DNA from: Escherichia coli
GTDB lineage: Bacteria; Pseudomonadota; Gammaproteobacteria; Enterobacterales; Enterobacteriaceae
Direction: 5' to 3' (one strand)
Length of the DNA: 64,000 bases
Assembly: GCF_048403405.1 (NCBI RefSeq)
Contig: NZ_CP183129.1
The first letter of the stretch is position 1; each line of letters starts with the position of its first letter. The translations under genes were made by a program, and so were the position numbers. Of this stretch, positions 13,907 to 14,807 are shown piece after piece. The notes beneath the pieces were generated by a model. That model saw nothing but the letters and a program-made list of their open reading frames with translations, was not told where the DNA came from and did not search any database.

Positions 13907-14000
13907 TGTACCGACCGGGCAGTGTTGCTGCCCGGTTCAAACATCATGGGATTCTGTGGTAAACTTCTCGCGATTTTGTGAAATCCTGGTTGAGGTATCT

Positions 14001-14702
14001 CTGAACACACCGGCACAGCTCTCTTTGCCACTTTATCTTCCTGACGACGAAACCTTTGCAAGTTTCTGGCCGGGGGATAACTCCTCTTTACTGGCCGCGC
14101 TGCAAAACGTGCTGCGTCAGGAACATAGCGGTTACATCTATCTCTGGGCACGCGAAGGCGCGGGGCGCAGCCATCTGCTGCACGCGGCTTGCGCGGAATT
14201 GTCGCAGCGTGGCGATGCGGTGGGCTATGTCCCGCTGGATAAACGCACCTGGTTTGTTCCGGAAGTGCTCGACGGTATGGAGCATTTGTCGCTGGTCTGT
14301 ATCGACAACATTGAGTGTATTGCAGGCGATGAGTTGTGGGAGATGGCGATTTTCGATCTCTACAATCGAATTCTGGAATCGGGCAAAACACGGTTGTTAA
14401 TCACCGGCGATCGTCCACCGCGGCAGTTGAATCTTGGATTACCGGATCTCGCGTCGCGTCTCGACTGGGGGCAGATCTACAAATTGCAGCCACTTTCTGA
14501 TGAAGATAAGTTGCAGGCGCTACAGTTACGCGCGCGTTTGCGTGGTTTTGAACTGCCGGAAGATGTGGGGCGTTTCTTGCTGAAGCGGCTCGACAGAGAA
14601 ATGCGCACGTTATTTATGACGTTGGATCAGTTGGATCGTGCGTCGATTACCGCGCAACGTAAGCTGACCATTCCGTTTGTGAAAGAAATTCTGAAACTGT
14701 AG
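14001..14702 (+). CDS. hda: DnaA-inactivating protein Hda (regulatory inactivation of DnaA)
   Basis: Track ORF 13956..14702 (GTG-initiated, 248 aa). Start placed at the in-frame CTG at 14001 (codon 16), which gives the 233-aa form; the longer GTG start is not excluded. Confidence 0.85.
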
Positions 14703-14740
14703 ACAAGACGTTTATTGTCGGAAATGCACCCATAGTATTC

Positions 14741-14780
14741 GTCGGCCGGATAAGACGCGGCAAGCGTCGCATCCGGCAAT
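14741..14780. repeat. REP (repetitive extragenic palindrome) element
   Basis: GCCGGATAAGACGCGGCAAGCGTCGCATCCGGC palindrome between the convergent hda and yfgD ends. Confidence 0.6.
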
Positions 14781-14807
14781 GTGCTTCAACTAGCGATGGA
14801 GCACTTC

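Follow-up and report, generated by a model that had tools for sequence, protein, structure and literature searches.

The hda gene in the analysed window, a stretch of 64,000 nucleotides of Escherichia coli DNA whose plus strand carries all of the hda features located below, very probably begins translation at a CTG codon at positions 14001 to 14003. The codon would be decoded as formylmethionine (fMet) to give a Hda protein of 233 amino acids, expressed from the gene's own extended -10 promoter, positioned for initiation by a Shine-Dalgarno (SD) sequence and kept scarce by the weakness of the codon. That hda starts with CTG in E. coli is already known; it has been an experimental result since 2008 and is part of the reference annotation. 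Our additions are modest and consist of the conservation of promoter, leader, SD sequence and CUG codon across the order Enterobacterales, the explanation of a decoy GTG codon by an extended -10 element located upstream of the transcription start site (TSS), and a probable mis-annotation of the start in sister families.

The 2 candidate start codons, a GTG at 13956 to 13958 and the CTG at 14001 to 14003, are located in the same reading frame and are separated by 45 nucleotides, or 15 codons. The open reading frame (ORF) that is delimited mechanically extends from the GTG to position 14702 and encodes 248 amino acids. The CTG is codon 16 of this ORF, and initiation there yields the 233-residue product from a coding sequence (CDS) of 233 codons and a stop codon at 14001 to 14702, as supported by the RefSeq annotation, the score against the NF005982 profile and the identity to PDB chain 5x06_E. 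Taken together, the ORF list, the species comparison and the position of the TSS indicate that the GTG opens the mechanical ORF but is not the start of hda. The preliminary description had noted both codons in these positions, in agreement with the ORF list, and had placed the N-terminus of a 233-residue Hda at the CTG, which was borne out by RefSeq, by the genome of strain K-12 MG1655, by EcoGene 3.0 and by the conservation of the codon. An in-frame CTG is uninformative on its own because this codon is very common; the weight comes from conservation, the SD sequence, the 5' end of the mRNA and the literature.

The gene order, upp-uraA-hda followed downstream by the oppositely oriented arsC and bepA, is that of the E. 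coli chromosome, and the hda locus was present in 5,425 of the 5,426 complete E. coli genomes. At this locus, the window was 100% identical to strain 118UI, where the RefSeq CDS annotated as "hda, DnaA inactivator Hda" (WP_001307333.1) covers positions 1702 to 2403 of the locus, corresponding to 14001 to 14702 in the window, and has CTG as its first codon. The RefSeq start of hda was at the same CTG in a laboratory strain that was checked. It is also the first codon in K-12 MG1655, where the gene (b2496, NP_416991.2, UniProt Hda_ECOLI, 233 amino acids) spans 702 nucleotides at 2618075..2618776 on the minus strand. The 110 nucleotides upstream of the CTG were identical in MG1655 and the window, the CDSs differed by 6 synonymous substitutions, none of which was located at or near the start, and the Hda proteins were identical. 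Moreover, a start region of 61 nucleotides that spans both candidate codons (13950 to 14010) was without internal mismatch in 5,394 of the 5,426 E. coli records. A start difference specific to this strain was ruled out by these identities, and the suggestion that the start deserved separate confirmation in this strain was not upheld. It was also noted that the spacer between hda and arsC, at approximately 14723 to 14790, is variable, with most E. coli genomes aligning only to position 923 of 951 in the query (14722 in the window), and that it contains a REP-like palindromic sequence, GCCGGATAAGACGCGGCAAGCGTCGCATCCGGCA.

The protein translated from the CTG scored 476.6 bits against NF005982 (cut-off 268) and 281.4 bits against TIGR03420 (cut-off 194.8), and was identical to residues 21 to 253 of the crystallised chain 5x06_E, which consists of a 20-residue tag followed by MNTPAQ.... 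Direct reading of the sequence placed the β-clamp-binding motif QLSLPL, which conforms to the N-terminal pattern QL[S/P]LPL, at 14016 to 14033, that is, at codons 6 to 11 counted from the CTG. In the AAA+ core, the P-loop residues G55, R56 and S57 and the Box VII arginine finger R153 were found at the positions expected from the solved E. coli Hda. The numbering used in the paper on the Hda-clamp structure (6-QLSLPL-11, G55/R56/S57 and R153; PMC5397184) was reproduced in the window translation only when the CTG codon was counted as residue 1. The identity to the K-12 protein suggests that this Hda would stimulate the hydrolysis of DnaA-ATP in a clamp-dependent manner (RIDA). Since the clamp-binding motif begins at codon 6, a canonical start downstream of the CTG would remove it; the gene-caller products obtained when CTG was disallowed (P0063 and P0099, beginning with MPLYLPDDE... 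and MPDDETF...) were shortened and lacked QLSLPL. Inconsistent annotation of the start is also passed on in published work; in the study by Kim et al. 2012 (PMC3415461), the E. coli hda gene is given as 747 nucleotides and the Klebsiella ortholog KPN_02819 as 678 nucleotides, with a start inside the clamp-binding region.

A search of the literature for N-terminal peptides or initiation-site ribosome profiling data for Hda found none. In their work of 2008, Su'etsugu and colleagues are said to have described initiation of hda at an unusual CUG codon downstream of the annotated start, which may restrict Hda to approximately 100 molecules per cell, and the correctly initiated protein was reportedly highly active in RIDA. 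The native protein is likewise said to co-migrate with the short form. In EcoGene 3.0 (PMC3531124), the CTG start of hda is given as experimentally shown in E. coli K-12, with reference to Su'etsugu 2008 (JBC 283:36118), and yfjD is given as the second confirmed CTG-start gene of this strain. According to the same source, yfjD resembles hda in that its chromosomal CTG start was recognised by conservation and inspection of the ribosome-binding site and then confirmed by start-codon mutagenesis, although the 2 proteins are unrelated. Nothing else of relevance was returned by a full-text search on Hda together with a CUG or CTG start; the start codon is unmentioned in the Katayama 2017 review, and no Hda entry was present in the text or supplements examined of the TRAINSPOTTER 2026 N-terminomics study.

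We compared 80 hda loci in species-representative genomes from approximately 30 Enterobacteriaceae genera, with Hda proteins that were 92% to 100% identical. The codon homologous to 14001 was CTG in all 80 loci, and the length from the CTG to the stop was 233 codons in all 81 Enterobacteriaceae sequences. Other invariant codons of the same gene, and hence with the same phylogeny, served as the control for codon constraint. Among the 31 positions with an invariant leucine in the 81 sequences, codon 1 alone was represented by a single codon, while the other 30 varied synonymously between CTG, TTG, CTC, CTT, CTA and TTA. Similarly, a fixed third base was observed in only 2 of the 64 amino-acid-invariant four-fold codons, codon 1 among them. 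The fixation of codon 1 in a gene in which the other invariant leucine codons vary argues that the CTG is constrained as a nucleotide triplet and not as leucine.

A GTG located in frame 15 codons upstream of the CTG, as in E. coli, was identified in only 7 of the 80 loci. The nearest in-frame stop codon was located within 15 codons upstream of the CTG in 60 loci and within 9 codons in 28, and as many as 46 loci had no ATG, GTG or TTG between that stop and the CTG. In the alignment, the frame between the region of GTG 13956 and the SD sequence was shifted by indels among species. The preliminary description had proposed an alignment of the upstream regions across Enterobacteriaceae for deciding which codon is conserved, and this alignment singled out the CTG. 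In one locus labelled E. coli (L004, strain SCPM-O-B-8794), the leader contained an insertion of 1 nucleotide (AAATCCC versus AAATCC) located downstream of the -10 element and upstream of the SD sequence. The counterpart of GTG 13956 is thereby moved into another frame, and a TAA comes into frame 14 codons before the CTG. Thus, the 248-residue ORF is not conserved even among genomes labelled E. coli. An in-frame ATG was found 8 codons (approximately 24 nucleotides) upstream of the CTG in Salmonella enterica subsp. arizonae and Citrobacter spp. (loci L005, L007-L009, L011-L015 and L017). It is located in the predicted short leader, approximately 6 nucleotides from the expected TSS and without a SD sequence, and would give a Hda of 241 amino acids; annotations of this length exist, such as P0005.

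A MAFFT alignment of positions -110 to +15 around the CTG, comprising 80 distinct sequences, contained 4 invariant or near-invariant blocks: a hairpin at 13914 to 13936, TG.TA.ACT at 13957 to 13965, GAGGT at 13992 to 13996, and CTGAA at 14001 to 14005. The invariant GAGGT represents the SD sequence, and 5 nucleotides (TATCT) separate its GAGG from the start codon. This spacing was 5 nucleotides in 91 of 92 loci, including those from other families described below, and 6 nucleotides in the remaining one. A TTG that is frequent 11 nucleotides upstream of the start is part of the conserved sequence TTGAGG.

The block at 13957 to 13965 corresponds to an extended -10 element, TGgTAAACT, as judged from its conservation and its distance to the TSS, and its TG coincides with the second and third bases of the "GTG" at 13956. 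The TG, TA and ACT columns were invariant in the 80 distinct sequences. TGnTAAACT was present in 77 of the 92 loci, and the others carried the hexamers TAGACT, TACACT, TAAGCT, TAGAAT or TAGTAT; an extended -10 element, recognised as TGn followed by a hexamer with T1, A2 and T6, was found in at least 88 of the 92. The element has the form of an extended -10 σ70 promoter, from which a TSS was predicted near 13972, and the published TSS matches this prediction. In Supplementary Data 2 of the SMRT-Cappable-seq study (PMC6131387), an operon consisting of b2496 alone is listed with a TSS at 2618805 on the reverse strand. This position maps to a G at 13972 in the window, the seventh nucleotide after the -10 hexamer and 16 nucleotides downstream of GTG 13956. 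A generic scan for σ70 -35/-10 promoters found none at hda, because the scan requires a -35 element and no good one is located here. The Cappable-seq and Romero 2014 supplements examined contained no entry for a hda-proximal TSS, and for hda the data of Kim et al. 2012 (PMC3415461) contained only a TSS represented by 2 reads and located 620 nucleotides upstream, inside uraA.

With the TSS at G13972, the main hda mRNA has a leader of 29 nucleotides (13972 to 14000) and GTG 13956 is located outside it; the conservation of the TG in this GTG is explained by its being part of the extended -10 element. The leader has no unusual structure. Its minimum free energy was -10 kcal/mol, no better than that of shuffled sequences (z = +0.60), and a structured leader or riboregulator was thereby ruled out. 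We also noted an out-of-frame GUG at 13978, 6 nucleotides from the 5' end of the mRNA, which opens an ORF of 8 codons (MKSWLRYL) with a UGA at 14002 to 14004 that overlaps the CUG start (C-UGA). Translational coupling through this mini-ORF was rejected as a conserved mechanism, since the GUG was present in only 3 of the 92 loci and is probably incidental.

Immediately upstream of the promoter, the hairpin at 13914 to 13936 resembles an intrinsic terminator of uraA, with a 9-bp stem (ACCGGGCAG / CTGCCCGGT) that is followed by UUCAAAC instead of a U-tract. Folding gave -20.5 kcal/mol (z = -4.48), the 9 pairs were kept in 23 species with compensatory changes at 3 pairs, and the 3' end of the upp-uraA transcript at MG1655 position 2618838 (PMC6131387) maps to 13939 in the window, just past the hairpin. 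The numbers of SMRT-Cappable-seq reads that started, ended at the termination site, passed it and ended within 50 nucleotides of it were 260, 37, 95 and 10 in one condition and 214, 30, 8 and 101 in the other (PMC6131387). The terminator is thus leaky in a condition-dependent manner, with 95 passing versus 37 stopping reads in the first condition and 8 versus 30 in the second, and the same study lists a read-through operon, b2498|b2497|b2496, that is, upp-uraA-hda. It follows that hda mRNA arises in two ways, by initiation at the gene's own promoter and by extension of transcripts from the upp promoter past the terminator. The read-through transcripts carry GTG 13956, and from the sequence alone a minor isoform of 248 amino acids is therefore conceivable.

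We considered 3 alternatives to initiation at CUG 14001. GTG 13956 was the start in the original yfgE/hda annotation, and the 248-residue product is the usual output of automatic gene callers, with 3,510 sequences from Logan/ENA in cluster P0002; no canonical start precedes the GTG in the open frame, and the 747-nucleotide version of the gene was still used by Kim et al. 2012 (PMC3415461). Nevertheless, a codon that is located 16 nucleotides upstream of the TSS of the hda-only mRNA, and is in frame at this position in only 7 of 80 species, with the frame broken by indels or stop codons in most, L004 included, is most improbable as the true main start. In place of a conserved SD sequence it is preceded only by GGGA in variable columns, the extended -10 element accounts for its TG, and the literature and curated annotation have moved the hda start from the GTG to the CTG.

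A second possibility is that both codons are used in E. coli and Shigella-like genomes, mostly CUG 14001, with a small amount of the 248-residue isoform being made from GUG 13956 on read-through mRNA. Such transcripts are documented (PMC6131387), and no stop codon interrupts the frame that begins at the GTG, either in the window or in nearly all E. coli, in which the start region is identical. However, the extension of 15 residues is not conserved among species, the SD sequence for the GTG is weak, and no function is known for additional residues in front of the clamp-binding motif. Together with the reported migration of native Hda as the short form, these observations make dual initiation improbable. 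Finally, initiation could take place at another near-cognate codon in the leader, either ATC 13983 or CTG 13986, both of which are in frame and located on the short mRNA. The leader, GAUUUUGUGAAAUC, offers no SD sequence upstream of either codon, their columns are variable and, in other species, are interrupted by indels and by stop codons in the same frame, and CTG 14001 is the only codon located at the 5-nucleotide distance from the invariant GAGG, so we attach next to no probability to such a start.

Conservation of the CTG was also examined outside Enterobacteriaceae in 12 further loci, of which 11 were non-redundant, from Yersinia (2 loci), Erwinia, Pantoea, Hafnia, Dickeya, Pectobacterium, Serratia, Rouxiella, Proteus, Xenorhabdus and Photorhabdus. 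These represent 5 other families of Enterobacterales, namely Yersiniaceae, Erwiniaceae, Hafniaceae, Pectobacteriaceae and Morganellaceae. The homologous codon was CTG in all 12 loci (11 of 11 non-redundant), and thus in 92 of 92 loci overall. Within the 11 non-redundant loci, codon 1 was the sole position with a single codon among 32 invariant-leucine positions; at the 52 invariant four-fold positions, the third base likewise varied everywhere except in codon 1.

The Hda orthologs of these families resemble that of E. coli in the promoter-like element, the GAGGT, the 5-nucleotide spacing and the invariant CTG, but differ in having a G after GAGGT, which creates a GTG that annotators have taken as the start. 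Their start region reads GAG-GTG-[C/A]TT-CTG-AAY, and the annotated GTG, located 2 codons before the CTG, forms the last 3 bases of GAGGTG and thus overlaps the SD sequence. The 3' tail of 16S rRNA has the sequence 5'-GAUCACCUCCUUA-3'. GAGGUG(AU) is exactly complementary to this tail (GAGGUG, GAGGUGAU), and the G is therefore more simply read as part of a longer SD sequence. The base after GAGGT, position 13997 in the window, was A in 48, C in 32, T in 1 and G in none of the 81 Enterobacteriaceae sequences, whereas it was G in 10 of 11 loci from the other families. The lack of G in Enterobacteriaceae could reflect either selection against a GTG or a single ancestral change.

The annotated lengths of Hda in the protein search were 233, 235, 238, 241, 244, 248 and 258 amino acids and more, and these forms differed only in their upstream extension. 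The most common annotated form outside Enterobacteriaceae was 235 amino acids long and started with M[L/I]LNTPAQ..., corresponding to VLLNTPAQ... in raw calls from JGI. Annotations of both 233 and 235 amino acids were found in Hafnia paralvei (P0027/P0029) and in Izhakiella (P0050/P0053). The NCBIfam profile NF005982 has 235 positions and aligned from residue 14 of the 248-residue ORF. As judged from the sequence comparison, the CUG start is probably order-wide, and the 235-residue annotation as well as the 235-position profile probably start 2 codons early.

In the sequence of events that we propose, transcription would begin at G13972 from the extended -10 promoter TGgTAAACT, just past the leaky uraA terminator, and the conserved GAGG(T), 5 nucleotides upstream of the start codon, would set the 30S subunit on the CUG. 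The initiator tRNA can read the near-cognate CUG as fMet despite a mismatch at the first position, and initiation factor IF3 discriminates against such codons. In reporter measurements, initiation at CUG relative to AUG was 1% to 2% with sfGFP and 0.1% to 3% with NanoLuc (bioRxiv 10.1101/063800). The hda codon would thus be read by the initiator fMet-tRNA through pairing at 2 of the 3 anticodon positions, with an efficiency of approximately 0.1% to 3% of that of AUG, and the weak start would keep Hda scarce. A single change of the first base would convert the codon to ATG, GTG or TTG and leave the protein the same, but no start codon other than CTG was found in the 92 lineages. This supports the idea that the weak codon has been retained to keep Hda scarce, and we infer that limitation of dosage may be the reason for its retention.

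A parallel is provided by infC, the gene for IF3, in which a non-canonical AUU start makes translation sensitive to the level of IF3, and autoregulation is established. In both genes the non-canonical initiation codon is conserved and reduces expression, with the potential to tune it. They differ in that the feedback is established for infC, whereas sensitivity to IF3 is hypothetical for hda.

Hda acts together with the DNA-loaded β clamp to inactivate DnaA-ATP (RIDA), which is the main brake on re-initiation of replication in E. coli. The clamp-binding motif is located at its N-terminus, so that a correct start is important for the design of constructs, for residue numbering and for the level of expression. 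When CTG is disallowed as a start, ORF tracks and gene callers yield either a false Hda of 248 amino acids or truncated forms without the motif. For the order as a whole, we consider it an evenly balanced proposition that the cassette of TGnTAAACT, a leader of approximately 29 nucleotides, GAGG, 5 nucleotides and CUG is ancestral to Enterobacterales and that the weak start codon has been held by purifying selection. If so, the 235-residue "GTG -2" start would be misplaced in Yersinia, Erwinia, Serratia, Hafnia, Dickeya, Proteus and their relatives, and the dosage of Hda would be under tight control, possibly in a manner sensitive to IF3 or to the translational status of the cell.
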